Translations under genes and position numbers: made by a program
In this document: in pieces, positions 3,001-64,000 of the stretch
How positions within the stretch are numbered: the first letter of the stretch is position 1
Layout: every line of letters begins with the position of its first letter
The notes under the pieces: model-generated
Told to the model about the DNA's origin: nothing
Database searches by the model: none
Seen by the model: the letters and a program-made list of their open reading frames with translations, nothing else
Assembly (NCBI RefSeq): GCF_963921235.1
Contig: NC_086097.1
Coordinates: 152,398,001-152,462,000 of the forward strand
Length of the DNA stretch: 64,000 bases
DNA from: Mobula hypostoma
Lineage: Eukaryota
Reading direction: 5' to 3'

Positions 3001-6000
3001 GGGGGAGAGAGGGGGAGAGGGGGGAGAGGGGGAGAGAGGGGGGGAGAGAGGGGGAGAGAGGGGGAGAGAGGGGGGAGAGAGGGGGGGAGGAGAGGGGGGA
3101 GAGGGGGAGAGAGGGAGAGGGGAGAGAGAGGGGGGAGAGAGGGGGGGAGGAGGGAGAGAGGGGGAGAGAGGGGGGGGAGAGAGGGGGGGGAGGAGGGGGA
3201 GAGAGGGGGGAGAGAGGAGGGGGGAGAGAGAGGGGGAGAGGAGGGGGGAGAGAGAGGGGGGGGAGAGAGGGGGGGAGAGAGAGGGGGGGGAGAGGGGGGG
3301 GAGAGAGGGGGAGAGAGAGGGGAGAGAGGGAGAGAGGGGGGGAGAGAGGGGGAGAGAGGGGGAGAGAGGGGAGAGAGGGGGAGAGAGGGGGAGAGAGGGG
3401 GGAGAGGGGGAGAGGGGGAGAGGAGGGGGGGGGAGAGGGGGGAGAGGGAGGGGGAGAGGGGGAGAGAGGGAGGGGGGGGGAGAGGAGGGGGGAGAGGGGG
3501 GGGGAGGAGGGGGGAGAGAGGGGGGGAGAGGAGAGGGGGAGAGAGAGGGGGAGGAGAGGGGGGGAGAGGGAGGGGGAGAGAGAGGGGGGGAGAGAGAGGG
3601 GGGGGGGAGAGGGGGGAGAGAGGGGGGGGAGAGAGGGGGGAGAGGGGGGGGGGAGAGAGGGGGGGAGAGGGGGGAGAGGGGGAGAGAGGGGGAGAGAGGG
3701 GGGAGAGAGAGGGGGGAGAGGGGGGGGAGAGGGGGGGAGGGGGGGGAGAGGGGGGGAGAGGGGGGGAGGGGGAGAGGGGGGGAGAGGGAGAGGGGGAGAG
3801 AGGGGGGAGGGAGAGAGGGGGAGAGAGGGGGGAGAGAGGGGGAGAGAGGGGGGAGAGGGGGAGGGGAGAGGGGGAGAGAGGGGGAGAGAGGGGAGAGAGG
3901 GGGAGAGAGGGGGAGGGGGAGAGGGGGGGGGAGAGAGGGGGGGGGAGGGGGGGGGAGGGGGGAGGGGGGGGAGAGGGGGGGAGAGGGGGGGGGAGAGAGG
4001 AGAGAGAGGGGGGAGGGGGGAGAGGGGGGAGGGGGAGAGGGGGAGAGGGGGGAGAGAGGGGAGAGAGGGGGAGAGGGGGAGAGGGAGAGGGGAGAGGGGG
4101 GAGGGGGGAGAGGGGGGGAGGGGGGAGAGGGGGGGAGAGGGGGAGAGAGGGGGAGAGGGGGGAGAGGGGGGAGGGGGGGGAGGGGGGAGAGAGGGGGAGA
4201 GGGGGGAGAGAGGGGGGAGAGAGGGGGGGGAGGGGGGGAGAGGGGGAGGAGGGGAGGAGGGGGAGAGAGGGGAGGGAGGGAGAGGGGGGAGAGAGAGGGG
4301 GGGAGAGAGGGGGGGAGAGAGAGGGGGGGAGAGAGGGGGGAGAGGGGGGGAGAGAGAGAGGGGGGAGAGAGAGGGGGGGAGAGAGGGGAGAGAGGGGGGA
4401 GAGGGGGAGAGGGGGGAGAGAGGGGGGGAGAGAGGGGGGAGAGAGGGGGGAGGGGAGAGAGGGGGGGAGAGGGGGGAGAGAGAGGGGGGAGAGAGGGGGG
4501 AGAGAGAGGGGGGAGAGAGGGGGGGAGAGAGGGGGGGGGGGGAGAGGGGGGAGAGAGGGGGGGGAGAGGGGGGGGGGAGAGAGGGGGGGAGAGAGGGGGG
4601 GGAGAGAGGGGGAGAGGGGGGGAGAGGGGGGGGAGAGAGGGGGGAGAGGAGAGAGAGAGGGGGAGAGAGGGGGGAGAGAGGGGGAGAGAGGGGGAGAGAG
4701 GGGGGGAGAGAGAGGGGAGAGAGGGAGGAGAGGGGGAGAGAGGGGGGGAGAGAGGGGGAGAGGGGGGGAGAGAGGGGGAGAGAGGGGGGAGGGGGGGGGG
4801 GAGAGGGGGGAGGGGGGGGAGAGGGGGGAGAGAGGGGGGAGAGAGGGGGGAGAGGGGGGGGGGGAGAGAGAGGGGGGGAGAGAGGGGGAGAGAGGGGGGA
4901 GGGAGGGAGAGGGGGGAGAGAGAGAGGGGGAGAGAGAGGGGGAGAGAGAGAGGGAGGGAGAGAGAGGGGGGGAGAGGGGGGGAGAGAGGGGGGAGAGAGG
5001 GGGGAGAGGGGGGGAGGGGGGAGGGGGGGAGAGGGGGGAGAGGGGGGGGAGGGGGGGAGAGGGGGAGGAGGGAGGGGGGGAGGGGGGAGGGGGAGGGGGG
5101 GGGGGGGGGGGAGAGAGAGGGGGGAGAGGGGGGGAGAGAGGGGGGAGAGGGGGAGGGGGGGGAGGGGGGGGGGGGGGAGGGGGGGAGAGAGAGGGGGAGA
5201 GAGAGGGGGGGAGAGGGAGGGGGGAGGAGAGAGGGGGGAGAGAGAGGGGGGAGAGAGGGGGGGGAGAGGGGGGGGGAGAGGGGGGGAGAGAGAGGGGGGG
5301 AGAGAGGGGAGAGAGGGGGGAGAGAGAGAGGGGGGGAGGGAGGGGGGAGAGAGAGGGGAGAGAGAGAGGGGGAGAGAGGGGGGAGAGGGAGAGGGGGAGA
5401 GAGGAGGGGGAGAGAGGGGGGGAGAGGGGAGAGAGGGGGAGAGGGGGGGAGAGGGGGAGAGGGGGAGAGAGAGAGGGGGAGAGAGAGGGGGGAGAGAGAG
5501 GGGGGAGGAGAGGGGGGAGAGGGGGGGAGAGGGGGGGAGAGAGGGGGGAGGGGGAGAGGAGGGAGGGGGGAGAGAGGGGGAGAGAGGGGGGAGGGAGGGA
5601 GGGGAGAGAGGGGGGAGGGGGGGAGAGAGGGGAGAGAGGGGGAGAGAGGGGGGGGAGGGAGGGGGGAGGGAGAGGGGGGAGGGGGAGAGGGGGAGAGAGA
5701 GGGGGAGAGAGGGAGAGAGGGGGGAGAGAGGGGGGGAGAGGGGAGAGGGGGGAGGAGGAGGGGGGAGAGAGGGGGGAGAGAGAGGGGGAGAGAGGGGGAG
5801 AGAGGGGGGGAGAGAGGGGGAGAGAGGGGGGGAGAGAGGGGGGGGAGAGAGGGGGGGAGAGGGGGGGGGGGAGAGAGGGGGGAGAGAGAGGGGGGAGAGA
5901 GGGGGGAGAGAGGGGGGAGAGAGGGGAGAGAGGGGGGGAGAGAGGGGGGGAGAGAGGGGGAGAGGGAGGGGGAGAGAGGGGGGAGAGAGGGGGGGAGAGA

Positions 6001-8175
6001 GGGGAGAGAGAGGGGGAGAGAGGGGGAGAGAGGGGGGAGAGAGGGGGGAGAGAGGGGGAGAGAGGGAGAGAGAGGGGAGAGAGGGGGGGGGAGAGAGGGG
6101 GGGAGAGGGGGGGGAGAGAGGGGGAGAGAGGGGAGAGAGGGAGAGAGGGGGGAGAGGGGGGAGAGGGGGGAGAGAGGGGGAGAGGGGGGAGAGGGGGGGA
6201 GAGAGGGGGAGAGAGGGGGGAGAGAGGGGGAGAGAGGGGGGAGAGAGAGGGGGGAGAGAGGGGGAGAGGGGGGAGAGAGAGGGGGGAGAGGGGGGAGAGA
6301 GGGGAGAGGGGGGAGAGAGGGGGGAGAGAGGGGGGAGAGAGGGGGGGGAGGAGGGAGAGAGAGGGGGGAGAGAGAGGGGGGAGAGAGGGGGGGAGAGAGG
6401 GGGAGAGAGAGGGGGGGGAGAGAGGGGGGAGAGAGAGGGGGGAGAGAGAGGGAGGAGAGAGCGAGAGAGGCGGGAGAGAGGGGAGAGAGAGGGGGGGGGG
6501 GGGGGGGGAGAGAGGGGGGAGAGAGAGGGGGGAGAGAGGGGGGGAGAGAGGGGGGAGAGAGGGGGAGAGAGAGGGGGAGAGGGAGAGAGGGGGAGAGAGG
6601 GGGAGAGAGGGGGAGAGAGGGGGAGAGAGAGGGGAGAGGGGGGAGGGAGAGGGGGAGAGAGGGGGAGAGAGGGGGGGAGGAGAGGGGGAGAGAGAGGGGG
6701 AGAGAGAGGGGGAGAGAGAGGGGGGGAGAGAGAGGGGGGGGAGAGAGGGGGGAGAGAGAGGGGGGGAGGAGAGGGGGGAGAGAGAGGGGGGGAGAGAGGG
6801 GGAGAGAGAGGGGGGAGAGAGAGAGGGGGGAGAGAGAGGGGAGAGAGGGGGAGAGAGAGGGGGAGAGGGGGGGAGAGAGGGGGAGAGAGGGGGAGAGAGG
6901 GGGAGAGAGGGGGAGAGAGGGGGAGAGAGGGGGGAGAGAGGGGGAGAGAGGGGGAGAGAGGGGGAGAGAGGGGGAGAGAGGGGGAGAGAGGGGGAGAGAG
7001 GGGGAGAGAGGGGGAGAGAGAGGGGGGAGAGAGAGGGGGAGAGAGGGGGGGAGAGAGAGGGGGAGAGAGAGGGGGAGAGAGAGGGGGGAGAGAGAGGGGG
7101 GGAGAGAGAGGGGGAGAGAGAGGGGGAGGGAGAGGGGGGAGAGGGGGAGAGGGGGGAGAGAGGGGGAGAGAGGGGGAGAGAGGGGGGGGAGGGGGGGAGA
7201 GGGGGGAGAGAGGGGGGTGGGAGAGAGGGGGTGGGAGAGAGGGGGAGGGAGAGAGAGGGGGAGAGAGGGGGGAGAGGGGGGAGAGAGGGGGAGAGAGAGG
7301 GGGAGAGAGAGGGGGGAGAGAGAGGGGGAGAGAGAGAGGGGGAGAGAGAGAGAGAGGGGCGGGGAGAGAGAGGGGGGGAGAGAGGGGGGAGAGAGAGAGG
7401 GGGGAGAGAGGGGGGGAGAGAGAGGGGGGGAGAGAGAGGGGAGGGGGAGAGAGGGGGGGGAGAGAGAGGGGGGGAGAGAGAGGGGGGAGAGAGGGGGGGG
7501 GAGAGAGGAGGGGGAGAGAGAGGGGGGGAGAGAGAGAGAGGGGGAGAGAGAGGGGGGAGAGAGAGAGGGGGAGAGAGAGAGGGGGAGAGAGAGGGGGAGA
7601 GAGAGGGGGGAGAGAGAGGGGGAGAGAGAGGGGGGAGAGAGAGGGGGGGAGAGAGGGGGGAGAGAGGGGGGAGAGAGGGGGGAGAGAGAGGGGGGGAGAG
7701 AGAGGGGGGGAGAGAGAGGGGGGAGAGAGGGGGGGGAGAGAGGGGGGAGAGAGAGAGGGGGAGAGAGGGGGGGAGAGAGGGGGGAGAGAGAGGGGGGAGA
7801 GAGAGGGGTGGGGAGAGAGGGGTGGGAGAGAGGGGGGGAGAGGGGGAGAGAGGGGAGAGAGGGGGAGAGAGGGGGAGAGAGGGGAGAGAGGGGGGAGAGA
7901 GGGGGAGAGAGGGGGGGAGGGGGGGGGGGGGAGGGGGGGAGGGGGGGAGAGGGGGGGGAGAGGGGGGGGAGAGGGAGGGGGGGAGAGGGAGGGGGAGAGG
8001 GAGGGGGGGAGGAGGGGGGGGAGAGGAGGGGGGAGAGAGAGGGGGAGAGAGAGGGGGGGAGAGAGAGGGGGGAGAGAGAGGGGGGAGAGAGAGGGGGAGA
8101 GAGAGGGGGGGAGAGAGAGGGGGGGGGAGAGAGGGGGGAGAGAGGGGGGGGGGGGGAGGGGGGGGGGGGGGGGGG

Positions 8176-8212
<37 letters not shown>

Positions 8213-8226
8213 GGGGGGAGAGGGGG

Positions 8227-8279
<53 letters not shown>

Positions 8280-8320
8280 GGGGGGGGAGAGGGGGGAGAG
8301 GGGGAGAGGGGGAGAGGGGG
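1..8320 (+). repeat. Very long G/A-only polypurine low-complexity tract (GA dinucleotides and G runs), open at the window start
   Basis: The + strand is almost only G and A, with a handful of T/C. A locally regular (GGGGAGAGAG)n run lies at about 6870-7020 and pure G runs at about 8150-8280. Confidence 0.97.
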
Positions 8321-9199
8321 AAAGAACAAGAAATTAACCTTAAGGGGCACAATATATTTCAGGGACCTCGGTTCAAATCTTGCCTTGAATATTGGAATTC
8401 AAAAACAAGTATATGCAACTTGGATTATTGTTTTTAAAAATTTCCATATACCTGTTGTCACTAATCAGAAATTATTCATAATTTGGCAACCCTCAACGTG
8501 GAGGTGGGGAGTAATCAAATTTAAGATTGTGAGGATTGGATTAAAGTCGATGGGATGAACTGATAACTATAGCTACCTATGCTGTTAACATGTGTATAAG
8601 TCACTAATATTGTTGGTACACAATGATATATTCCAGAGCTGGCATTGTGACTCAGAGGAAAGCTTGTTGCTTAATTTTGACTCTTAAAAATGGAAAAGTG
8701 TTCTACTCCCCAAGGTCAGTTAAATGATGATAATTCATCAAAAGGCGGGATGTTCTACATGTGCAATAATAATTCTATACCAGGAATTGGAAATTAGTAG
8801 ATTTTGATTGATGGTCAGAATAAATATATTCTAGTTTTGTGTGAAATGCCAGATAAACATTAAAAGCTATGGGTAGTGCACTGCAAGGTAATACCATCTG
8901 ACAGAATTCTATTATTGGTTTTCCCATTTGTTTTACATAGAAGAGAAACTGCTATGGATAATTTATGGACTGATTGTACTGCATCAGCTCCACAGTGTGC
9001 TGCACAGTCAGGAGAAGCAAATTACATTTCTTCTTTCTGAGGGAACATTGATTCCACACCACAAGAGGTATTCAATATTCTTTTTGTTCATCTGCACAGA
9101 TTTCATCTCCTCACTAGTTGCCAGCAAGTAACCTTGTGCAACCTACTTGCAGCTGTGGAGGAGGAAACTGCCATGAAAAAATACCTTAAAAAGATAAAA

Positions 9200-9957: not shown

Positions 9958-10229
9958 ATTTTCACTAAGTGACTTTAAAAGTAGGTGTGGCTAAAAGATA
10001 ATTTAGCCCAGTACTGGAAGTGGAAACACTACTATTTCAACTTTTCATCTTTGCAGCCTCAGTTACTAGAGCAGAACCTACAAGATGCAGAAACCTGAAG
10101 AATTGGTATTAACCATCTGCCTGTACAGGTTCTCCACAATCCTGAAGAAGCAGACCATGATAAAATAAACACATTGTTATGAATTTAAATTTGGAAGCAA
10201 GTTAAACTAAACCAGTATAGCACCTACAT

Positions 10230-10316
10230 CCAGACCTGGTGAAAGGTCACAACCTGAAATGTTGACTGTTCATTCCCCTCCCTAGATGCTGCTGGACTTC
10301 CTCCAGCATTTTATTT
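10230..10316 (+). mobile_element. 87-bp Penelope-derived mini-insertion (degenerate hammerhead plus tail) with 15-bp TSD
   Basis: gacCTGGTGAaaggtcacaacctGAAAtgttgact...gatgctgctgg...ttcctccagcatttt is homologous to 63147-63233. It is flanked by gtatagcacctacat (10215-10229) and gtatagcacctatat (10317-10331). Confidence 0.8.
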
Positions 10317-11708: not shown

Positions 11709-11742
<34 letters not shown>

Positions 11743-11790
11743 GCTGGAGGGAACCCAGCAGGACAGGCAGCATCTGTGGAAGAGAGTAAA

Positions 11791-11827
11791 CACTCAGTGT
11801 TTTGGGCTGAGACCCTTCATCAGGACT
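11791..11827 (-). ncRNA. Degenerate hammerhead ribozyme motif in the PLE 3' UTR
   Basis: The - strand reads agtc-CTGATGA-agggtctcagccc-AAAA-cactgagtg. GAAA has become AAAA and the GUC site is lost. Confidence 0.6.
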
Positions 11828-11892
11828 GGAGAAAAAAAGATAAGGTGTCAGAGTAAGAAGGTGGGGGAGAGGAGGAAGAAATACAAGGTAGT

Positions 11893-14211: not shown

Positions 14212-14432
14212 AAAGCAGGAGAAAATCTGCAGATGCCGGAAATGCAAGACAGACACACACAGACACACAATGCTGGAGGAACCCAGCAGGCCACGCAGTA
14301 GCGATGGAAAAGACTAAACAATCTCATTTTGGGCCGAGACCCTTCTTCAGCATTAGTGAAGAGTCTTGGCCCATAACATCGATTGTTTACTCCTTTCCTG
14401 GCCTGCTGAGATCCTCTAACATTTTGTGAGTG
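14212..14432. mobile_element. Head-to-head inverted pair of PLE 3' (hammerhead-plus-tail) modules
   Basis: The left arm (-) ends ...gggccgagacccttcttcag. The right arm (+) reads gtgaagagtcttggcccataacatcgattgttt...ggcctgctgagatcctctaacattttg. Confidence 0.75.
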
Positions 14433-24062: not shown

Positions 24063-24256
24063 AACTTCTTCCTTCCCTCCCCCCACCTTCTTACTCTGAC
24101 TTTTCCTCCTTCTTTGCGGTCCTGATAAAGAGTCTTGGCCCATAACATTGACTGTTCACTCTTTTCCCTGGATGCTGCCTGGCCTGCTGAGTTCCTCCAG
24201 CATTTTGTGTATGTTGCTCGGATTTGCAGCATTTTCAGATTTTCTCTTGTTTGTTC
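24063..24256 (+). mobile_element. PLE 3' UTR, second part, with a degenerate hammerhead at about 24117-24153
   Basis: ggtcCTGATAAagagtcttggcccATAAcattgact...gatgctgcctggcctgctgagttcctccagcattttgtgt continues the fragment at 18408-18803. Confidence 0.85.
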
Positions 24257-32149: not shown

Positions 32150-32622
32150 CAGGCATGAACACTGATTTCAGAAACTTCCAGTAATTACTCTAACGTTCCC
32201 CCCTTTTTTTCTCATTCTCCATCTGGTACCCCTCTCATCCCATCCCTCCTCCTCACCTGCCCATTACCTCCCTTTGGTTCCCCCCCCCTTCCTTTTATGG
32301 TCCACTGTCCTCTCTTATTAGATTCCTTCTTTTTCAGCCCTTTACCTCTTCCACATCACCTCCCAGCTTCTTACTTCATTCCTCTCCCCAACCTACCCAC
32401 CCATCTCCCCCCCACCTGATCTGACGATTCACCTGCCATCTTGCACGCCTTCCCTTTTGCCCACCTTCTTTATTCTTGCCTTCATTTATAGTCTTCATGA
32501 AGGTTTTGATCTGAAACCTCAGCTGTTTATTCCCCTCCTTCAACGCTGTCTGACCTGCTGAGTTCCTCCAGCATTTTACACGTGTTTCTGAAAATTTCCA
32601 GCATCTGCAGAATTTCTTGTAT
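32150..32622 (+). mobile_element. PLE 3' end (last codons plus 3' UTR) with a degenerate hammerhead at about 32490-32525
   Basis: ggcatgaacactgatttc...aacttccag, a pyrimidine-rich UTR, then agtcTTCATGAaggttttgatctGAAAcctcagctg and the tail. Confidence 0.82.
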
Positions 32623-35402: not shown

Positions 35403-35535
35403 ACCCCTGATCCAGTACTTCAACCTGAAACATCAACAGTTCCTTTCCTTCGACAGATGCTGCTTGACCTGCTGAATACCTCCAACATCTTGTTTCTTGC
35501 TCCAGGTTCCAACATTTGCAGTCTCTTGCATCTCC
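35403..35535 (+). mobile_element. Short PLE-tail module starting at a degenerate hammerhead
   Basis: cccCTGATCCagtacttcaacctGAAAcatcaac...agatgctgcttgacctgctgaatacctccaacat. Confidence 0.6.
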
Positions 35536-44234: not shown

Positions 44235-44437
44235 TAGACACAAGTCTATAAATCTTGAGCAATGTACACATAGCACTGAAGGAACTCGGCATGTCATGCA
44301 GCATCCGTGGAGGGAAATGAACAGTCAGCATTTCAGGCCGACACATTCCCTAGTCCTGATGAAGGACCTTGTCCTGAAACACTGGCTGTTCAGTTCATTC
44401 CATAGATGCTGCCTGGCCTGCTGAGTCCCTCCAGCTA
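44235..44437. mobile_element. Second head-to-head inverted pair of PLE hammerhead-plus-tail modules
   Basis: The left arm (-) reads ...ggaactcggc...gcagcatc...acagtcagcatttcaggccgacac. The right arm (+) reads agtcCTGATGAaggaccttgtcctGAAAcactggct...gatgctgcctggcctgctgagtccctccagc. Possible TSD ttgtaacatatgca/ttgtaacatgtaca. Confidence 0.8.
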
Positions 44438-44477
44438 TTGTAACATGTACACTGGTTTGTTAGTTGTTGACAATATA

Positions 44478-49730: not shown

Positions 49731-52700
49731 CCGAAGGGGGCAGGTGGCAAGGACGTGGCTGGACTGGCCGCAATATAGACACTCGCCCGCTTTCATTCTC
49801 CGGAGTCGTTTAGTGGGAGAAAGGCGGTTCCGTCCCAGCTGCGTGGGTTCCGCTCCTGGGGCGGTCGAAGCGGCAGGGCTGGGAGCTACTCGGGGTGCAG
49901 GAGGAGGAGAGAGGCTTGTTCTGGCGGGAGGTGGTAAAGAGTGCCGAGAAGTGGCCAAGGGTCATGGATGACCAGTTCTCTCTCTATGGCGCTCTCGGAG
50001 GTGATTGTCCATCCTGGTGGCCAGGGAGATCAGGGAATCCAGGCTGTCAGAGTTGTCTCTCACCGCCAACTCGTCCTTCACCAGGTCGTTGAGTCCATTC
50101 AGAAAAACCTCCTGGAGTGGCTCATCGTTCCACCCTGAGTCGGTCGCCAACGTCTGGAACTCCACTGAATATTCAGCAACACTGCGGGAGCCCTGGCAGA
50201 GAATGAGTAGATGCTTGGCAGCGTCTTTAACACGGACGGGGTGATCGAAGATTTTTCTCATCTCCGTGATAAAACTGGTGAAAGAGAAGCAGATATCAGA
50301 TTGGTCGTCCCAAACTGCTGTGGCCCCGCTAATGCGCTCCCCCGTAGCAACCCCATGACAAGCAATTTTAGACTTACCTGTGGAGTAAGTCGACAACTGC
50401 TGTTCAAACACCAGGGAGCACTGAAGGACGAACATAGAACATAGAACATAGAATAGTACAGCACAGTACAGGCCCTTCGGCCCACAATGTTGTGCCAACC
50501 CTCAAATCCTGCCTCCCATATAAGCCCCCACCTTAAATTTCTCCATATACCTGCCTAGTAGTTTCTTAAACTTCACTAGTGTATTTGCCTCCACCACTGA
50601 CTCAGGCAGTGCATTCCACGCACCAACCACTCTCTGAGTCAAAAACCTTCCTCTACTGTCCCCCTTGAACTTCCCACCCCTTACCTTAAAGCCATGTCCT
50701 CTTGTATTGAGCAGTGGTGCCCTGGGGAAGAGGCGCTGGCTATCCACTCTATCTATTCCTCTTATTATCTTGTACACCTCTATCATGTCTCCTCTCATCC
50801 TCCTTTTCTCCAAAGAGTAAGGCCCCAGCTCCCTTAATCTCTGATCATAATGCATACTTTCTAAACCAGGCAGCATCATGGTAAATCTCCTCTGTACCCT
50901 TTCCAATGCTCCCACATCCTTCCTATAGTGAGGTGACCAGAACTGGACACAGTACTCCAAGTGTGGCCTAACCAGAGTTTTATACAGCTGCATCATTACA
51001 TCGCAACTCAAAAACTCTATCCCTCGACTTATGAAAGTTAACACCCCATAAGCTTTCTTAACTACCCTATCCACCTGTGAGGCAACTTTCAGGGATCTGT
51101 GGGCATGTACCCCCAGATCCCTCTGCTCCTGCACACTACCAAGTATCCTGCCATTTACTTTGTGCTCTGCCTTGGAGTTTGTCCTTCCAAAGTGTACCTC
51201 CTCACATTTCTCTGGGTTGAACTCCATCTGCCAATTCTCAGCCCACTTCTGCATCCAATTAATGTCTCTCTGCAATCTTTGACAATCCTCTACACTATCT
51301 ACAACACCACCAACCTTTGTGTCATCTGCAAACTTGCCAACCCACCCTTCTACCCCCACATCCAAGTCGTTAATAAAAATCACAAAAAGTAGAGGTCCCA
51401 GAACAGATCCTTGTGGGACACCACTAGTCACAATCCTTCAATCTGAATGTACTTCCTCCACCACGATCCTCTGCCTTCTGCAGGCAAGCCAATTCTGAAT
51501 CCACCTGGCCAAACTTCCCTGAATCCCATGCCTTCTAACTTTCTGAATAAGCCTACCGTGTGGAACCTTGTCAAATGCCTTACTAAAATCCATATAGATC
51601 ACATCCACTGCACTACCCTCATCTATATGCCTGGTCACCTCCTCAAAGAACTCTAACAGGCTTGTTAGACACGATCTGCCCTTCACAAAGCCATGCTGAC
51701 TGTCCTTGATCAGACCATGATTCTGTAAATGCCTATAGATCCTATCTCTAAGAATCTTTTCCAACAGCTTTCCCACCACAGACGTAAGACTCACTGGTCT
51801 ATAATTACTCGGACTATCCCTACTACCTTTTTAGAACAAGGGGACAACATTCGCCTCCCTCCAATCCTCCGGTACCAATCCCGTGGACAACGAGGACATA
51901 ATGATCCTAGCCAGAGGCTCAGCAATCTCTTCTCTCGCCTCGGGGAACAGCCTGGGGAATATTCCGTCAGGCCCCGGGGACTTATCTGTCCTAATGTATT
52001 TTAACGACTCCAACACCTCCTCTCCCTTAATATCAACATGCTCCAGAACATCAACCTCACTCATATTGTCCTCACCATCATCAAGTTCCTTCTCACTGGT
52101 GAATACCGAAGAGATGTATTCATTGAGGACCTTGCTCACTTCCACAGCCTCCAGGCACATTTTCCCACCTTTATCTCTAATGGGTCCTACCTTCACTCCT
52201 GTCATCCTTTTCTTCTTCACATAATTGAAGAATGCCTTGGGGTTTTCCTTTACCCTACTTGCCAAGGCCTTCTCATGCCCCCTTCTTGCTCTTCTCAACC
52301 CCTTCTTAAGCTCCTTTCTTGCTTCCCTATATTCCTCAATAGACCCATCTGATCCTTGCTTCCTAAACCTCATGTATGCTGCCTTCTTCCACCTGACTAG
52401 ATTTTCCACCTCACTTGTCACCCATGGTTCCTTCACCCTACCATTTGTTATCTTCCTCACCGGGACAAATTTATCCCTAACATCCCGCAAGAGATCTCTA
52501 AACTTTGACCACATGTCCATAGTACATTTCCCTGCAAAAACATCATCCCAATTCACACCTGCAAGTTCTAGCCTTATAGCCTCATAATTTGCCTTTCCCC
52601 AATTAAAAATTTTCCTGTGCTCTCTGATTCTATCCTTTTCCATGATAATGCTAAAGGCCAGGGAGCGGTGGTTACTGTCCCCCAGATGCTCACCCACTGA

Positions 52701-54473
52701 GAGATCTGTGACCTGACCCATTTCATTACCTAGTACAGATCTAGTACGGCATTCCCCTGGTCGGCCTGTCCACATACTGTGACAGGAATCCGTCCTGGAC
52801 ACACTTAACAAACTCTGCCCCATCTAAACCCTTGGAACTAATCAGGTGCCAATCAATATTAGGGAAGTTAAAGTCACCCATGATAACAACCCTGTTATTT
52901 TTGCACCTTTCCAAAATCTGCCTCCCAATCTGCTCCTCTGTATCTCTGCTGCCACCAGGGGGCCTATAGAGTACCCCCAGTAGAGTAACTTCTCCCTTCC
53001 TGTTCCTGACTTCCACCCATATTGACTCAAAAGAGGATCCTGCTACATTACCCACCCTTTCTGTAGCTGTAATAGTATCCGTGACCAGTAATGCCACCCC
53101 TCCTCCACCTATTCCGCCCTCCCTATCCCTTTTAAAGCACTGAAATCCAGGAATATTGAGAATCCATTCCTGCTCTGGTGCCAGCCAAGTCTCTGTAATG
53201 GTCACTACATCATAATTCCATGTATGTATTCAAGCTGTCAGTTCATCACCTTTGTTCCTGATGCTTCTTGCATTGAGGTACACACATTTCAGCCCTTCTA
53301 CCTTACTGTCTTTACACCGTTTATTCTGCTTCTCTTTCATCAAAGCCTCTCTATATGTTACATCTGGCTTTACTCCATGCACTTCTTTCACTGCTCTATC
53401 GCTCTGGGTCCCATCCCCCTTGCAAATTAGTTTAAACCCTCCCGAACCATGCTAGCAAACCTACCTGCAAGGATATTGCTCCTCCTTGAGTTCAGGTGCA
53501 ACCCATCCAATCTGTACAGGTCCCACCTTCCCTAGAAGAGATCCCAATGATCTAAAAATCTAAAACCCTGCTCCCTGCACCAACTCCTCAGCCAAGCATT
53601 CAACTGCCATCTCCTCCAATTCTTACCATCACTGTGACGTAGCACTGGCAGCAATCCTGAGAACGCCACCCTTGAGGTCCTGCTCTTCAGCCTTCTGCCT
53701 AGTTCCCGAAACTCACACATCAGGACCTCATCCTTCTTCCTGCCTATGTCGTTGGTCCCAACATGTATCACGACTTCTGGTTGCTTTCCCTCTAGTACCA
53801 GGATGTCGTGCACCCGGTCAGAGACACCCCAGACCCTGGCACCCGGGAGGCAACAAACCATGCGGGCATCCATCTCACATCCACAAAATCTCCTGTCTGC
53901 TTCTCTGACTATAGAGTCTCCAATGACCACAGCTCTCCTCTTCTCCGTCCCACCCTTCTACACCACAGGGTCAGCCTCAGTGCCGGAGGCCCTGCCACTG
54001 TGGCTCACACCTGGTCGGTGGTTCCCGCCAACAGTATCCAGGATGGTAAACTTATTATTCAGGGGAATGGCTACAGGGGTGCTCTACACTACCTGTCTGC
54101 TCACCTTCGCTTTCCCCCCTCTGACTGTCACCCAACGACCTGCTTCTGACAGCCTAGGTGTGAAACCCCGACACTTCCCCAAATATCCCGCATAGTGCTC
54201 TGGCTCTGGTACATGAGGCTCTCTGGGCGAGAATGTTGGTGAAGCTAGGGGGGTTGCCACTACAGGCTATCTGGGCTGGCTAGGCTGGGTTCCAGGAGTG
54301 GGTTGATTGAAATGAGTGGAGACATGGTCCACCTGGTTACCGATCTGCGTGACGTGAGCAGACAGGGAACGGAGTTTCTCCACGACCTCCCGGAGGAGTT
54401 GGTCGTACTGTCCCAGTAGGGAACCCTGGCTGGCGAAGGCTTGTTGAAGAGTGTTTGTGTCTGCTGGGTCCAT
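49731..54473 (-). pseudogene. Gypsy gag (PEG10/sushi-like), split by the CR1 between ...GKCRGF and VLQCSLVF...
   Basis: ATG at 54473 (MDPADTNTLQQAF), capsid-like QGSRSVAEYSVEF, and a CCHC knuckle. Confidence 0.9.
50433..54161 (-). mobile_element. Young CR1 LINE, 5'-truncated within ORF1, inserted in gag
   Basis: Esterase: MVIGDSIVR...HVGTNDIG. APE: ITETWL...MGDFNFP. RT: MDFSKAFDKVPH, KFADDTK. Only about one frameshift and two stops in ORF2. (GAACATA)n tail. A 3-bp gaa duplication restores the gag frame. Confidence 0.96.
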
Positions 54474-54887: not shown

Positions 54888-57424
54888 GAATGACTAAAGA
54901 ATAGAAAACTAGATTAGAGAAAAGGGTTGTAGGGGGATTATGATGGCCGTGGGTATTGAGAAGAGAAATATTGGCAGGGGGCATTTGTATGTCTGTAAGC
55001 CCAATCATTATTTGTAAAATCTTGTCACATCATCTGTTAGACATTCATGAAAGAATTTATGAACAAGTTTCTTTTGATGTTCAAATGTTATAATCTACTG
55101 AAGTACAGAAGCCTGAAAATGCACACTAAATGTTTTAGGAACACCGTCTTCCCCTCTGCTATCAGATTTTTGAATGGTCCATGAACCCTATGAAAACTAA
55201 TTCTCTATATTGCTCTTTTTTTTAACATTTTATCTATCTGTCTGCCTATCTATTTGCTTCTCTCTCCATCTATCTATCCATCCGACTACCCACCCATCCA
55301 TCCATTGGACTATTTAATTATTTATTTTCATAACGTATAGTAATTTTTTTAATAAATTGTACTCTGCTGCTGCTGCAGAACAGCAAATTTGGCATTGATA
55401 ATAAACCTGATTCTGATTTTGAGTACAAGGCAGTCTTGTGTTTCTTTCCTCTCTTAAACCCCATCTGTCTAATTTCTGAATATTTTTTAAGGGTGGTGGC
55501 AAAGACATAAGGGGACATTAGATAGGCACATAGGTAACAGAAAAGTGAAAGGCTACGTAGGAGGGAAGGGTTAGATTGATCCTGGAGTTGACACCACATT
55601 GTGGACCAAAGTTCCTGTACTCTGCTGTATTGTTCTATGTTATACTTAAATAGCAAACACAAAACCCCTCCAGCTACTGGAATTCTCAAATAAAATCAGA
55701 AAGTGTATCGGAAAGTAGTCAGAAGGTCTGGCAGCATTTGTGCACAATGAACAATGGAGTCAAACTTTTATTTGAACTGGAAAACTGAGAACTCCAAACA
55801 ACTTGAGAAATATAGCATTACATTAGTTTTGATTACAACTGACCTTTCCTTGACAATGTAGCCCTCTATGGCACATTGATTTGGCATTATAATCTGCAGA
55901 TCTGTAGCAAGGAAATCAAAAGCAATGCCATTAAATGACTGACAACTCCTGCCCCTTCTTCTAAAAATAAATCTTTATAACAACTGAATCGAAGCACAAA
56001 TAAGATTGTATGGGGAAAATTTTACTGGATTAGCAACAATCACTGCAAACCAGATGTCATTGCTCAGAGATGAATCTCTAACTTTCCACACCTGTGACCG
56101 AGCTGTTCAACTGTGTGATTCTTATGATTTCCCATTTACTCACCTCGGAGTCGGTCTGATCTTTTATCAGCTTTGACATGACCAGGAATCATATAAATAA
56201 ATGCAGTCATTTCTTTGCTAAATGGAAAAGGGAAACAGAAAATTATAAATAAGGAGAAAAGTAACTATCAATTAAAAGCTGAGAAAAAGATGATAAAGAA
56301 ATGTCTAAAATAGTGAAAAGCTTAGAAAGAAATCGAGAGAATGAGATTGATTAAACACAGGTAGCAGTACTTTGATTACATTTCCTAAATTTGTCTAATT
56401 TCCTGTCCTATTTCCAGTCGTATATATGTATCATTCAGAATATTAAGCACAACACAAGATGCTGTATGAGGAATAAAGCAGGCTGAATATGAGAGTCAAA
56501 TTTAATGATCAATTGAGACATAATTTTTCTTCCAGTCAGGCGTGTTTAAAACTCCTTTTTCAAACAAAATAACGCTGCAGAAAGCAGACAGTGTGATAAG
56601 AAAACACTGAATTTGCGAACACATTTAAAAAAAAATTCGTCAATGCAATGAGCTTTCTTTGCTGTGCAGTCAGCCATCCCACAAGCCATCACTGTGACTG
56701 ACTGATAAGGGCACTTCAAATGCTGAAAGCTCTAATCTTCAAAAGACGCTGAAAAATTCCAAGAAAATTTCAAGGGGCAGATTACTGTGATTGAAGTGAG
56801 CTGTAAATGCCACTTACTGTGGAAAACCCACTTCACATAAAGCACAACTAACTGCTAAACAGTTTGACTCAATAAAGTGTATTGCTCACAGTGCCAAATG
56901 AGTAAAAAAGGATTAGATATATTTTTTTAAATATCAGATTTAAAGTGATTTTAATGCTACAATAAATCATTGCAGTCCCTGTTTTAAATAGTAATCAAGA
57001 AAAATGTTCAATAATCATTTTTATAATAATGTTATTAAATGGAAATAGAGCATTATAATATAAAAGGATGTTTCACAATCTATTTCACAGATTATTTGAA
57101 GTAGTGGAACCTAAATTGTAACAGGAATGCATTTAATTCATACTAAACAATATCGATTAAAAATAGAAACAAATTTCTATCCTAGCATGCTCTGTGGAAC
57201 CAAAGGACTCTTTAAAGCATGTAGAGAGCTGAAGAAAATTAATTGTTTCCTTCTTAGAACTCTGTCACAACATTGCTTCAATCATTTCTCGATTTATTCC
57301 CAAAATCTTTGGATATGTTAATATTCAAAATGAAGCTTGTGTAAAAACCATTCATCAGCTTGATGAATGCAGAGCTCTTTTCATCTAAATGTGAATTGTT
57401 GTCATAACTTCAATCGTATGAAGC

Positions 57425-57880
57425 GAGGGGTAGAAGTAGGAGTACGCCATTCATTCATTCATTCATCTCTGTTCCACCATTGTATGAGATCAAAACTGAT
57501 TGCTTACCTTGTGAGATTTTCCTGATCTAGAACAAAGTCCTATGATTTTATTAATATCTCAAAATCTTTTGATTTTTGTCTCAAATACATTCAGCAACTG
57601 AGTCTCCATGGTCCTTTTGATTAGAGAATTCCAAAGACTTACCAGCCTTTAGATGAAGAAATTTCATCACATCTCTCCCTGGATGGTCTGTCACTTATTT
57701 TGAGACTATGATCCCAGCCAGAAGATTATCAAATCTCCATCTACTCTGCAAGCTCCATAAGAATTTACTCTACTGTGATTTTATTTCTAACCTCATGAGG
57801 ATGCAGGTCTAGTCTGCTTAATGTCTGCTAATATGATGAAATTGCCTTTAAAGCTGATGAGTTATTGTACTACACCCTCC
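57425..57880 (-). mobile_element. Old CR1 3' fragment
   Basis: agaagtaggagtacgccattc tail, with degenerate agagaattccaaaga...gaagaaattt. Confidence 0.65.
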
Positions 57881-58039
57881 TAAATTGTCTACATAATATT
57901 CCATCCATAGTCTGACAAACAAGAATTGATTTTCTTGAGTGGACGATGCACTAATTCATTAACACAGTGTGCTAATTTGCTAGGATAGCATTTTCCTGGG
58001 GCATTTCAAGATAAAGAAGGAGGTAATGTAGGGTCTCTA

Positions 58040-58525
58040 AAAGAACAATAAGATGGATATCCCTAGGTTATTGAGAGAGGCAAGAGATAAGATTGCTGAG
58101 TTTTTGAGGTAGCGAGGTACCTGTGGGTCCTCTTTAGCCCGAGGTGAGATCCCTGCAGACTGTGGAGTAGCAATATTGAAGAAGGGAAATAAGGAAAATC
58201 TTGGAAACTTTGGGCCAGTAAGTCTCATTCATGTCAGTGGTAGGAAGTTACTGAGGAGGATTCTTAGGGGTAGGATTTATGAACAATTGGAAAAACATGG
58301 CCTAATTAGGAACTGTTAGCATTCCTTTGTGCGGGGGAAGTCATGCTTATCGAGGAGGTGACAAGGGTGATTGATGAAGCTAGAGCTGTGGATGTTATCT
58401 GCATGAATTATAATAAGACATTTGACAAGGTCCCTCATGGGAGTCTCACACAGATGATTAATATGAATGGGATCCAAGGTGATATGGCCATTTGGATACA
58501 TAACTGGCTTGCCCATGGAAAACAG
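58040..58525 (+). mobile_element. CR1 ORF2 internal fragment
   Basis: EEVTRVIDEARAVDVICMNYNKTFDKVPHG. Confidence 0.85.
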
Positions 58526-59047
58526 AGATTAGATTAGATTAGATTATGAGGACACTCAGTCCTCGCTTATTGTCATTTAGTAATGCATGCATTAAAAAAT
58601 GACACAATATTCCTCCAGAAGGATATCACAGAAACACAGGACAAATCAAGACTAAAACTGACAAAACACATAATTATAACATATAGTTACAATAGTGCAA
58701 AGCAATACCATAATTTGATAAAGAGCAGACCATGGGCACGGTAATAAAAGTCTCAAGCCCCAATAGGCCCATCATCTCACGCAGACGGTAGAAAGGAGAA
58801 ACTCTCTCTGCCATGAACCCCCAAGTGCTGCAAACTTGCCGATGCATTGGAAGCACCCGACCGCAGCCGACTTTGAGTCTGTCTGAAAAACTTCGAGCCT
58901 CCGACCAGCCCTCCGACACTGAGCACCGAGCACCATCTCTGCTGAGCGCTTCGACCCCGTCCTGGCCGTCAAGCAACAAACAAAGTCGAGGACTCGGGGC
59001 CTTCCCCTCCAGAGATTCTGGATCACACAGTAGCAGCGGCAGCGGGG
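58526..59047 (-). mobile_element. Young non-coding retroposon (SINE-like) with a (TAATC)n tail
   Basis: (gatta)4 sits at the left end next to a CpG-rich body and interrupts the CR1 fragment. Family not identified. Confidence 0.55.
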
Positions 59048-60521
59048 AGGTTGGGATTTGCAAGTTTTTGCTTATTTTTCCTTTCATTCAGGGCAGGAGT
59101 GTAATTGATGTCTTTCTCCCAACTACCACTATGTTTTTTTATATTTTATGCCTATCTGCAAAAGACAAATCTCAGTGCTTTATTCTGCATACATAATTTG
59201 ATAACAAAATGAACCTTTGAAACTTTGAAGCAGACAAGTTTGAGATAAAAATAGTACAGTTAAGTTGGTTGATGATGGAAGGCTTGCCTAAATCAAATTA
59301 TCATGGATGTGATTTTTGTAATGCAACATTAGAAGAGTTACAAACTTTGGCAATCTGAAAGAGCCTACCTCTGTTCCCCTATACCCATTATATTCATGGG
59401 AAGTGGCTCCTCCAAGTGATTGCAGCAATGAGTTATTATCATAATCATCTAGTACACTGCACATGTGAATTATGTTGAAAGATAAAAGACAGTCTATATC
59501 GGTACTGTAGAGGGGAACATGCTCCCTTGTGTTTGCCAAGGTGAATAATGTTCAGAGGAAGACATAGAATAAAAGTGAGGAAGTTGAAGTTACAGTTGAG
59601 ACCATTAGCATATAGAGTTGCATAATTCCATATTTTGCATACATCATATAATCTTCAGGTTTCTTATAATATTTTATATTATTTGTACTGCTTGTATTCA
59701 TATTACCTTATTGTAACAATTTATCAGACTTAAACTTTTAAATGAGTTCAGGATTGTCCTGTTAAGTGGGTCTTGATTGGTTTATTTCCATATGGGTAGA
59801 TTTAGACTAAGCTCTAAAGCTACCCATATGTGTAGAAGGACACTCCTATTAGCCTCTCCTAATATTAAAAAGTGAGCAATTAGTTACTTTAAGGTTGGAA
59901 GTGCTGGCTGAGAAATAAATGGTAAGGAAAACTTCATGTATAGCATTTTATATTAATGAAAGATCAAAAAATTATTTTTATTAAGCCAGTATGCTTTGAA
60001 TAGTACCTTTAATAACCGGAGATAGGAACTCAATTTCAACATTCTAATGTAACTTTTGTTAATTTTGTTAATGGGTTTCTGCAAGTTTAAGTAGCCCATC
60101 GAGGACCAACACCTATTTGTCCACGTTTCTGTGTTCTTAAAAGAGTTGGTGACCAAGGGACAGCAATGTACAATCTGGGACTATGAGTTAGTATGAGAAA
60201 GGGCTGAAAACAGTAAAGTCATTGGGAGACCCCTGTTCTGGTGCATCCAGGTGAAGTGAAGGAGAACAGTTGCAAGAGAAGTTAGAGAAGGAAGAGTTTC
60301 CTCAGAGTGAAAAAAGAATGAAAACAATGGCATCATGCTGGAGAGGTTGGAAATTATGGGAAATATTTTTAAAAGTAGATATTAGTGAGAATGACTATGA
60401 TCCGATAGTCATGCAGTGGAAGTTTGGAAAATGGGACACACATACCTGAGGAGTTTGTCAGTCAAAACGGAATGGAATCCTCAGCTGAGGAGAAAAGGAA
60501 ATAGAATGGAGTACTGATGTC

Positions 60522-62846
60522 ATGTCAGCGTTGTCAGAACAGATGCAGAGGAGTCAGAGAAGCAGGGAGAATGAAACACACCCTTTCTGCGAAGACAAGG
60601 TAGTTGTAAGAGTGTGTCGACCCCCTCCCCCCTCTGATCCCAGCTCTCATCCGTGTCGGGTCTTTACCATCCCCTCCGACCCTCAACTGTTGGAGGCAGA
60701 ACGCTCTGTCCTCAATAAGGGCCTCACGTTTGTCCCCCTTCGCCCACACCTCAGCGAGTTCCGTGTTTGCCATGATGTGGAACTTTTCTTCCGCCGTCTC
60801 CGTCTCCGAGCCTACTTCTTCGGCAAGGACTCTTCCACCCCCACCGATGACCCCTTCTCCCGTCTTCAACCCTCCTCTTCTTCATGGACACCCCGCTCTG
60901 GTCTTGTGCCTGCTCTGGATCTCTTTATTGCTAACTGCCGACGGGACATCAACCGTCTCAACTTCACCGCACCTTGTCCCCATTCCAACCTCACTCCTTC
61001 GGAACGCTCGGCTCTCCACTCCCTCCGCACTAATCCTAACCTTATTATTAAACCCGCCGATAAGGGGGGTTCTGTTGTAGTCTGGCGCACTGACCTCTAC
61101 CTTGCCGAGGCACAGCGACAACTCGCGGATACCTCCTCTTATTTACCCCTCGATCGTGACCCCACTAAGGAGCACCAGGCCATGGTTTCCCACACCATCA
61201 CCGACTTTATCCGCTCAGGGGATCTCCCATCCACTGCTACCAACCTTATAGTTCCCACACCCCGCACTTCCCGTTTCTACCTCTTACCCAAGATCCACAA
61301 ACCTGCCTGTCCTGGCAGACCTATTGTCTCAGCTTGCTCCTGCCCCACCGAACTCGTTTCTGCATACCTCGACACGGTTTTATCACCCCTTGTTCAATCC
61401 CTTCCGACCTATGTTCGTGACACTTCTCACGCTTTTAAACTTTTCGATGATTTTAAGTTCCCTGGCCCCCACCGCTTTATTTTCGCCATGGATGTCCAGT
61501 CCTTATATACTTCCATCCCCCATCAGGAAGGTCTCAAAGCTCTACGCTTCTTTTTGGATTCCAGACCTAATCAGTTCCCCTCTACCACCACTCTGCTCCG
61601 TCTAGCGGAATTAGTCCTTACTCTTAATAATTTCTCCTTTGGCTCCTCCCACTTCCTCCAAACTAAAGGTGTAGCTATGGGCACCCGTATGGGTCCTAGC
61701 TATGCCTGCCTTTTTGTTGGGATTGTGGAACAATCTATGTTCCGTGCCTATTCTGGTATCTGTCCCCCACTTTTCCTTCGCTACATCGACGACTGCATTG
61801 GCGCTGCTTCCTGCACACATGCAGAACTCATTGACTTTATTAACTTTGCCTCCAACTTTCACCCTGCCCTCAAGTTTACCTGGTCCATTTCCGACACCTC
61901 CCTCCCCTTTCTAGATCTTTCAGTCTCTGTCTCTAGAGACAGCTTATCCACTGATGTCTACTATAAGCCTACTGACTCTCACAGCTATCTGGACTATTCC
62001 TCTTCTCACCCTATCTCTTGCAAAAACGCCATCCCCTTCTCGCAATTCCTCCGTCTCCGCCGCATCTGCTCTCAGGATGAAGCTTTTCATTCTAGGACGA
62101 GGGAGATGTCTTCCTTTTTTAAAGAAAGGGGCTTCCCTTCCTCCACTATCAACTCTGCTCTTAAACGCATCTCCCCCATTTCATGTACATCTGCTCTCAC
62201 TCCATCCTCCCGCCACCCCACTAGGAATAGGGTTCCCCTGGTCCTCACCTACCACCCCACCAGCCTCCGGGTCCAACATATTATTCTCCGTAACTTCCGC
62301 CACCTCCAACGGGGTCCCACCACTAAGCACATCTTTCCCTCCCCCTCTCTCTCTGCATTCCGCAGGGATCGCTCCCTACACAACTCCCTTGTCCATTCGT
62401 CCCCCCCATCCCTCCCCACTGATCTCCCTCCTGGCACTTATCCGTGTAAGCGGAACAAGTGCTACACATGCCCTTACACTTCCTCCCTTACCACCATTCA
62501 GGGTCCCAAACAGTCCTTCCAGGTGAGGCAACACTTCACCTGTGAGTCGACTGGGGTGATATACTGCGTCCGGTGCTCCCGATGTGGCCTTTTATATATT
62601 GGCGAGACCCGACGCAGACTGGGAGACCGTTTTGCTGAACATCTACGCTCTGTCCGCCAGAGAAAGCAGGATCTCCCAGTGGCCACACATTTTAATTCCA
62701 CATCCCATTCCCATTCTGACATGTCTATCCACGGCCTCCTCTACTGTAAAGATGAAGCCACACTCAGGTTGGAGGAACACCTTATATTCCGTCTGGGTAG
62801 CCTCCAACCTGATGGCATGAACATCGACTTCTCTAACTTCCGCTAA
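60522..62846 (+). CDS. PLE reverse transcriptase + GIY-YIG endonuclease ORF (774 aa; the first ~32 aa come from flanking DNA)
   Basis: IKPADKG, YLLPKIHK...GRPIVS, MDVQSLYTSI, QTKGVAMG, RYIDDC, the Cys linker CKRNKCYTC, and VIYCVRC...LYIGET...RFAEH. Confidence 0.92.
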   Translation: MSALSEQMQRSQRSRENETHPFCEDKVVVRVCRPPPPSDPSSHPCRVFTIPSDPQLLEAERSVLNKGLTFVPLRPHLSEFRVCHDVELFFRRLRLRAYFFGKDSSTPTDDPFSRLQPSSSSWTPRSGLVPALDLFIANCRRDINRLNFTAPCPHSNLTPSERSALHSLRTNPNLIIKPADKGGSVVVWRTDLYLAEAQRQLADTSSYLPLDRDPTKEHQAMVSHTITDFIRSGDLPSTATNLIVPTPRTSRFYLLPKIHKPACPGRPIVSACSCPTELVSAYLDTVLSPLVQSLPTYVRDTSHAFKLFDDFKFPGPHRFIFAMDVQSLYTSIPHQEGLKALRFFLDSRPNQFPSTTTLLRLAELVLTLNNFSFGSSHFLQTKGVAMGTRMGPSYACLFVGIVEQSMFRAYSGICPPLFLRYIDDCIGAASCTHAELIDFINFASNFHPALKFTWSISDTSLPFLDLSVSVSRDSLSTDVYYKPTDSHSYLDYSSSHPISCKNAIPFSQFLRLRRICSQDEAFHSRTREMSSFFKERGFPSSTINSALKRISPISCTSALTPSSRHPTRNRVPLVLTYHPTSLRVQHIILRNFRHLQRGPTTKHIFPSPSLSAFRRDRSLHNSLVHSSPPSLPTDLPPGTYPCKRNKCYTCPYTSSLTTIQGPKQSFQVRQHFTCESTGVIYCVRCSRCGLLYIGETRRRLGDRFAEHLRSVRQRKQDLPVATHFNSTSHSHSDMSIHGLLYCKDEATLRLEEHLIFRLGSLQPDGMNIDFSNFR

Positions 62847-63239
62847 GGCCCCACCTCCCCCTCGTACCCCATCTGTTACTTATTTTTATGCACACATTCT
62901 TTCTCTCACTCTCCTTTTTCTCCCTCTGTCCCTCTGAATATACCTCTTGCCCATCCTCTGGGTCCCCCCCCCCACCTCCTTGTCTTTCTTCCCGGACCTC
63001 CTGTCCCATGATCTTCTTGTATCCCCTTTTGCCTATCACCTGTCCAGGTCTTGGCTCTATCCCTCCCCCTCCTGTCTTCTCCTATCATTTTGCATCTCCC
63101 CCTCCCCCTCCAGCTTTCAAATCCCTTACTCACTCTTCCTTCAGTTAGTCCTGACGAAGGGTCTCGGCCTGAAACGTCGACTGCGCCTCTTCCTATAGAT
63201 GCTGCTTGGCCTGCTGCGTTCACCAGCAACTTTGATGTG
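60618..63239 (+). mobile_element. Young 5'-truncated Penelope-like element (probably Neptune clade) with 16-bp TSD
   Basis: Flanked by agttgtaagagtgtgt (60602-60617) and agttgtcagagtgtgt (63240-63255). Contains an RT + GIY-YIG frame and a 3' UTR with a hammerhead. Confidence 0.96.
63147..63182 (+). ncRNA. Minimal type-I hammerhead ribozyme with intact core
   Basis: AGTC-CTGACGA-AGG-gtctcgg-CCT-GAAA-C-GTC^GACT. Stem I is AGUC/GACU, stem II is AGG/CCU, a palindromic ACGU replaces stem III, and cleavage is predicted after C63178. Confidence 0.88.
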
Positions 63240-63477
63240 AGTTGTCAGAGTGTGTATAGTTACAGCAAACACTAGTTGCCAGCTTATCCTAAGAAACAAC
63301 AATTGATATATTGAGCAGAGTAAGGGCTGTGTGAAGGCAAGGAGGGATTTGTAGAAATTGGAAACACATTTGAAGACTGGTTTGTTAACCTCTTCACTGA
63401 TACAACAGGAAAAAGAGACCATTATAAAAATATCCTGCTCAAACTTCAATGACCACACCAGCTAAAAGTGAACTACT

Positions 63478-63875
63478 GGAACTGTTTCCCTTTTCCAGAG
63501 TTAGGGTAGATTCCAGATATTCAAATGTGCGTCCAGCTGTATTTGAATCCACTGAGGGCTTCTACCTCCACAGCCTTTACATCCAATGAGTTTAAGCTCC
63601 TTACCAGTTACTGGATAAAATGTTTTTATGAAAAACACTTTAAGACAAATAATTTTCTCCTGTTCAGTTTTATGTATCACATTGAAATCTTGGCTCATGT
63701 GCAGTATTCAGAATAAAACAGACCCTAGTCTAGAATGCTCCAATCCTGCAAACAGTCTTACCTACATATTCTGTAGCGTGGTTCTGGAAACATATTCAAT
63801 ACTTCAGCTGGGTCTTAGCTAGTTTTCAACTGTATACTTGCATTACATTTGCATTCTTATCCACTTTATCCACCT
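63478..63875 (-). mobile_element. Old CR1 fragment
   Basis: Degenerate similarity to the CR1 ORF2 end (gcttctacctccacagcc..., acatattcaatacttcagctggg). Confidence 0.5.
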
Positions 63876-64000
63876 CACAGAGAAGTGAGGAAGGAGACCT
63901 GTAAGAATGGAATGAAGAATATTCCTCCATTAGCTTTGGGCTGACTCACTGAACAGAGCTAGCAATCTTGTCACAACTTCCATTCTAGGGAATTCAAGAT

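Follow-up and report, generated by a model that had tools for sequence, protein, structure and literature searches.

Positions 63147–63182 of the window, a stretch of 64,000 nucleotides from the genome of Mobula hypostoma (contig NC_086097.1), contain a complete minimal type-I hammerhead motif. It lies in a terminal repeat that belongs to a Penelope-like element (PLE) of a very abundant family, present here as a 5'-truncated copy. We consider it probable that full-length members of this family cut read-through RNA after the nucleotide equivalent to C63178, though probably weakly and only together with a second motif or the element protein, a reading that draws on conservation in relatives, on modelled folds and on analogy with Penelope hammerheads already described. 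Comparisons with the papers cited below by accession are with excerpts of them.

Results

The hammerhead motif and its predicted fold

The motif reads AGUC CUGACGA A GGGU CUCG GCCU GAAA CGUC GACU and lies 301 nt after the TAA stop codon (62844–46) of a frame encoding reverse transcriptase (RT) and a GIY-YIG endonuclease. As an earlier note on this DNA had stated, the type-I core is complete (CUGACGA at 63151–57, GAAA at 63171–74 and the GUC triplet ending at C63178), stem I is formed by AGUC at 63147–50 and GACU at 63179–82, the palindrome ACGU (63174–77) stands in place of helix III, and the distance to the stop codon is about 300 nt. The stem II drawn in that note, AGG/CCU, did not hold up: the A63158–U63170 pair it needs is feasible in one of 12 aligned distinct motifs, whereas G10.1 is paired in all 12 (G-C in 11, G.U in the window), and folding gives the G10.1 register a pairing probability of 0.86–0.96 compared with 0.02 for the A63158 register. 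Alignment and folding thus indicate that A63158 is the bulged base known from these motifs, with stem II composed of 63159–62 and 63167–70 (G.U, G-C, G-C and U.G) and the loop CUCG, and that the window carries a wobble at the usual G10.1-C11.1 pair. We treat this wobble as a variant and not as an exclusion from the minimal hammerheads (min-HHRs).

The bare core pattern occurs in the window at chance level (two matches compared with 1.4 expected); the full descriptor, comprising the core, both stems and the palindrome, has 63147–63182 as its sole match within 8001–64000 and also matches 3 of 300 shuffled sequences. The search with Infernal that had been proposed, run with Rfam covariance models over 56000–64000, gave no hammerhead match at E ≤ 10, a result that is not evidence against the motif because the motif lacks helix III. 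The folding z-score of 63140–63200 is 0.56, no stabler than shuffles; in the minimum-energy fold of the monomer the core GACG pairs with CGUC (−10.0 kcal/mol, compared with −6.0 kcal/mol for an active-like fold), and stem I has p = 0.004 by folding in a 124-nt context. A second palindrome, GUCGAC at 63176–63181, spans the predicted cut and could form a competing intermolecular duplex of −7.5 kcal/mol, compared with −1.7 kcal/mol for ACGU; in the alignment, GUCGAC is not kept in the motifs of distant relatives.

Structure of the copy in the window

The features of the locus are listed in Table 1. The duplication that brackets the copy indicates that it was truncated at insertion. Genomic matches to the window element start at 60621, while all 29 of 29 other loci carry element sequence farther upstream, and by comparison with the intact ORF of 1016 codons the window ORF is 274 codons short at its N-terminus and has no start codon; the upstream repeat is missing from the copy as well. 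The 44 open codons 5' of 60621 are flanking DNA, and the truncated ORF has no start codon of its own. An in-frame ATG is present in the flank upstream. The window protein has 20 private residue differences, one of which is a codon deletion in the endonuclease that removes the Q of LEEQHL, a residue present in 14 of 14 open copies. The Pfam RVT_1 match to the window ORF (E 2.9e-5, 24.3 bits) falls under the cut-off of 29.6 bits.

Table 1. Features of the truncated Penelope-like element and its junctions (window coordinates)
Feature	Position	Strand	Remarks
Left target-site duplication	60602..60617	+	16 bp, one mismatch with the right copy
Three extra bases at the 5' junction	60618..60620	+	Like neither the element nor the duplication
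5'-truncated Penelope-like element ORF	60621..62846	+	741 codons, residues 275-1016 of intact copies
Reverse transcriptase motifs	61059..61793	+	DKGG (61059), MDVQSLY (61488), YIDD (61782)
CX4CxxC linker, zinc-finger-like, Neptune/Nematis type	62445..62471	+	CKRNKCYTC at 62445; definition from an excerpt of PMC8557442
GIY-YIG endonuclease region	62553..62843	+	Pfam GIY-YIG 23.5 bits, over the 22.6 cut-off
3' untranslated part of the pseudo-LTR	62847..63146	+	Pyrimidine-rich; polypyrimidine tract and CAG at its end, adjoining stem I
Minimal type-I hammerhead motif	63147..63182	+	Predicted cut 63178/63179
Remaining pseudo-LTR, to the first of two 3'-end sites	63183..63239	+	
Right target-site duplication	63240..63255	+	

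The untranslated part of the pseudo-LTR (pLTR) recurs 5' of the ORF in full-length loci. At the 3' junction, 63241–44 also agrees with the continuation of the element, and a 35-nt “tail” is missing from this copy. The element had been described as coding-intact; judged by the sequences of intact copies it is not, although its frame is open for 741 codons. An autonomous source copy would combine a complete ORF, including the start codon, with an upstream pLTR, and the window copy has neither. It carries a single motif and lacks both a start codon and the upstream repeat, which makes it a passive product of the family rather than a source.

Elsewhere in the window there are older, decayed remnants of related hammerhead-bearing repeats at 44281–44441, 11742–11828 (minus strand), 14271–14356 (minus strand), 10224–10306, 24118–24203, 32489–32580 and 35407–35479; the remnant at 44281–44441 is a head-to-head pair with the motif at its centre. 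Positions 1–8000 form a purine-only tract on the plus strand (GC 0.72–0.75, GC and AT skew near 1.0) that is probably a long simple satellite. On the minus strand, 51831–53957 contains frames that we take to resemble portions of a CR1-type LINE, namely its endonuclease and its esterase.

Conservation in relatives

Among 120 homologues listed, none of them a named PLE reference, the closest proteins, at 72% and 69% identity, are from a bamboo shark, followed by proteins at 43–57% identity of which the named ones are from a sea urchin and snails, a series that by itself makes a cartilaginous fish the likely host; no relative was found in the viral contigs searched. A distant set of 80 metagenome loci encoding relatives (250,867 bases) gave 14 descriptor matches, compared with 0–1 in each of 10 shuffles. 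Thirteen of the 14, spread over 11 of the 80 loci, share the core, the bulged A and ACGU but differ in their stems. Among relatives at ~50% protein identity the core is retained, while the stems differ and are compensated. An alignment of 13 rows (12 of them distinct), made up of the motifs of the window and of one sister copy and of 11 found in distant relatives, contains compensatory changes in all four pairs of stem I and three pairs of stem II, amounting to 33 double changes, a number reached in 0 of 500 shuffles. Core, bulged A and ACGU are invariant in the 12 distinct motifs (ACGU in 13 of 13 rows). Of the alignment cells in the stems, 93.8% are paired, a rate that is partly circular because the descriptor demanded the core boxes and the stems; it made no such demand of the bulged A, of G10.1, of the central CG or of the position. 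Among 24 relatives with a complete C-terminus, nine have the core 100–151 nt downstream, and 15 have no core within 500 nt, four of these 15 having less than 250 nt of sequence.

Within the genome, the core is also the least variable part of young copies: at non-CpG sites of 82 such copies, 1 of 820 core positions differs, compared with 16 of 2050 downstream and 51 of 2872 upstream, as raw counts that carry no base-composition control. In contigs of related organisms, other families have the motif in common with this one and diverge at both of its edges; in the full-length locus L061 the loose ends lie at 3009 and 3045. On these comparisons, 63147–63182 is a real minimal type-I hammerhead of a PLE, with a dimer-type architecture. 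It belongs to a kind of small RNA motif, likely self-cutting, that is already known from PLEs.

A young and abundant family

The exact motif pattern, with two free positions, has 45,751 matches genome-wide, and a control pattern has 0. The form with G-C at 10.1-11.1 makes up 6,605 of the 45,751, whereas U at 11.1 (G.U) is found in the most numerous copies, the dominant young subfamily; of the G-C loci, the first 30 belong mostly to sister subfamilies with 78–95% identity to a young intact copy. Among 39 loci retrieved at length, four have an open, complete ORF, which encodes 1016 aa in three of them and 1081 aa in the fourth, and full-length frames hold four of the best 150 endonuclease matches (203,986 first-look candidates). 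Full-length loci have the structure pLTR-ORF-pLTR, with a second motif 3,504–3,519 nt upstream, such that two motifs lie ~3.5 kb apart and the upstream predicted cut is 138 nt before the ATG. The motif occupies both repeats of L061, L062 and L132, whereas the window copy has the downstream motif only. Twelve of 13 open copies differ by 0.5–1.8% from the column majority; the thirteenth differs by 6.5%, a value likely inflated by ungapped comparison. The low divergence of open copies, together with intact 1016-aa ORFs with two flanking motifs, marks the family as young and recently active.

The same four subfamily-diagnostic bases are found in both repeats of five of eight full-length loci. In one locus, L066, the upstream and downstream pLTRs are unlike at all four of these sites, a mismatch that suggests two template RNAs contributed to one insertion. 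In five loci (L048, L052, L056, L057 and L097), a 213-bp unit in the Pro/Ser-rich linker of the ORF, upstream of the point at which the window copy is truncated, is tandemly duplicated in frame, up to four times.

Ends of genomic copies

The 3' ends of 183 copies are bimodal, with 89 at 63230–54, 94 at 63265–94 and none between; insertions end at two sites ~65 and 105 nt downstream of the predicted cut, and from the mapped sequences the two groups represent an optional tail. For 5' ends we used a sample anchored downstream of the motif, consisting of 95 rows from the first 100 of 84,288 places and including two duplicate rows and one boundary artefact. In this sample 89 of 95 copies begin upstream of the predicted cut and two begin exactly at it. 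Since most copies run through the cut, the RNA that was reverse-transcribed was mostly uncut.

Genome-wide start counts of the same design, made with three-letter filters of unequal pass rate, were 238 at 63175, 490 at 63179, 237 at 63183 and 121 at 63190, of which 30, 70, 30 and 30 starts, respectively, were classified. When starts with microhomology of at least three bases and small indels are set aside, the estimates become 103, 301, 166 and 97, and starts at the predicted cut are ~2–3 times as frequent as at neighbouring positions 4–11 nt away. For plain junctions to flanking DNA the estimates are 8, 56, 24 and 36, with overlapping intervals. The excess at the cut lies mostly in inverted arms, several of which contain CCU-GACU, which amounts to a skip across a hairpin that belongs to the predicted misfold and has its base at the cut; stalling on uncut RNA would account for the excess as well as cutting would. 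A 12-position scan gave no sharp peak at the cut (18 of 99 at 63178–79), and because its filter leaves out the main inverted classes we relied on the same-design counts instead.

A stronger accumulation of 5' ends than that at the cut is located at the 5' edge of the motif, 63143–52, where 16 starts among 76 copies at risk (15 without a duplicate) compare with 2.75 expected, ~5 times the neighbouring rate (P about 2e-7 against adjacent stretches). The cluster might reflect a transcript start or a splice acceptor, or else the end of the cDNA folding back on stem I. The polypyrimidine tract and CAG at 63120–63148, before stem I, resemble a 3' splice acceptor; other families likewise have pyrimidines and AG before the motif. 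No GT..AG joint into the position before stem I was found among the joints listed (15 of 173 and 15 of 35) in six runs of contigs. Taken as a footprint, the copies and inverted arms that start just after the predicted cut would mean that the genome records ribozyme cutting in vivo, a possibility that we regard as doubtful.

Discussion

Our data are most consistent with a hammerhead that acts, if modestly, in full-length members of the family. In such members two ACGU palindromes would pair and thereby supply helix III, and the element protein may assist cutting, which would help because the lone motif is predicted to misfold. The predicted misfolding and the weak stem I fit the published inactivity of single motifs: in excerpts of PMC4209133, the single S. 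mansoni motif is inactive and dimers are weakly active; one of nine Xenopus dimers was cleaved (bioRxiv 10.64898/2026.07.22.740005, in excerpt); and the motif of the anole element cut only with protein (PMC11167929). Cutting, if it occurs, would likely free RNA of unit length from the read-through transcripts that tandem loci produce, insertion mostly uses uncut RNA, and translation from the cut end may occur by analogy with PMC13725137. For the anole element, PMC11167929 reports a search of RNA-seq data that found no ends at the cut.

A loss of cutting in the young subfamily, with the motif retained for a structural or promoter-side role (protein binding, transcript start or splice acceptor), is unlikely. 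The G.U at 10.1-11.1 in ~39,000 exact copies, which did not halt amplification, would sit well with such a role, as would the clustering of 5' ends at 63143–52 more than at the cut, the polypyrimidine tract and CAG before stem I, where the intron end lies in D. virilis (PMC4209133), and the finding that catalytic mutants have no effect on insertion in vitro (PMC11167929). However, all catalytic positions are kept at ~50% protein identity and are least variable in young copies, and the exact cut has roughly twice as many starts as positions near it. We find it a little less probable still that, as the model of PMC4209133 has it, cutting at both motifs yields a unit-length RNA, ligation turns this RNA into a circle, and reverse transcription over more than one unit restores pLTR-ORF-pLTR, in which case the intact junctions in copies would be religated and not uncut. 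A circular template would account for tandem loci in which the motif at either end is intact and for the matching diagnostic bases in five of eight full-length loci, but read-through templates predict matching repeats as well, one circular template cannot yield the repeats of L066, and RNA left unprocessed is the main in vitro substrate of a related element (PMC11167929).

The earlier note had taken the window locus itself for an autonomous, recently active system of RT, endonuclease and ribozyme. Its 741 open codons with RT and GIY-YIG motifs and the ATG in the upstream flank invite that reading, which is countered by the absence of 274 N-terminal codons, start codon and upstream repeat, by a target-site duplication that marks the truncation as made at insertion, by the deleted endonuclease codon and by the single motif. 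Comparison with intact copies refutes it unless the truncated protein is active, and we think it very improbable. What survives of the claim is recent activity of the family, with its young open copies and intact two-motif loci; the preferred reading places any cutting in those full-length members.

By the definitions of Craig et al. 2021 (PMC8557442, in excerpt), the element is an endonuclease-positive PLE of Neptune/Nematis type, assigned by motifs that leave Neptune and Nematis unsplit. It shares with that type a single ORF with RT followed by a C-terminal GIY-YIG domain, the DKG motif, cysteines inside GIY-YIG and a CX2-5CxxC linker between RT and endonuclease, as well as partial tandems of the pLTR, inverted 5'-truncated partners and a tail of 30–40 bp. 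Poseidon elements differ in having no CX2-5CxxC linker, which the window element has. The PAc (Poseidon_Ac) element of Anolis carolinensis (Frangieh et al. 2024, PMC11167929) resembles this family in having a pLTR hammerhead near the ORF start, two reverse-transcription start sites 30–40 nt apart that give an optional tail, and templates that are mostly uncut; in contrast to the cut 138 nt before the ATG here, its ORF starts in stem II and the cut falls inside the ORF.

Min-HHRs in the pLTRs of metazoan PLEs were described in 2014 by Cervera and De la Pena (PMC4209133). The motif agrees with theirs in having a type-I core, a helix I of 4 bp, one unpaired base (A63158 here) between 9 and 10.1 and a palindromic 15.2-16.2 without helix III, in its presence in both repeats of full-length copies and in the mostly single motifs of truncated copies. 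It differs in the G.U of the window and most young copies, where that paper reports a highly conserved G10.1-C11.1 (a pair outside its search descriptor), in a helix II of 4 bp compared with 7–8 in S. mansoni, and in an exact copy number ~10 times the 4,000–9,000 given for coelacanth and Xenopus. The excerpts of PMC4209133 do not name cartilaginous fishes, and our literature search found no paper on this family in them; prior annotation in repeat libraries (Repbase, Dfam) is possible. The window locus, a truncated copy that has tens of thousands of near-identical counterparts and bears a motif of a published kind, is ordinary in kind.

The value of the finding resides in the family as material, since its copy number lets template ends be counted base by base. 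The in vivo role of Penelope ribozymes is still treated as an open question (PMC4209133, PMC11167929 and PMC8557442, in excerpt), and here the end counts indicate mainly uncut templates and a slight surplus of starts at the cut. If that excess does record cutting in vivo, ~10^5 young copies, the G-C and G.U subfamilies and the cluster at the 5' edge would together provide a testbed for the role of the Penelope hammerhead; one role that could be tested is cap-independent translation of RNA cut 138 nt upstream of the ATG.
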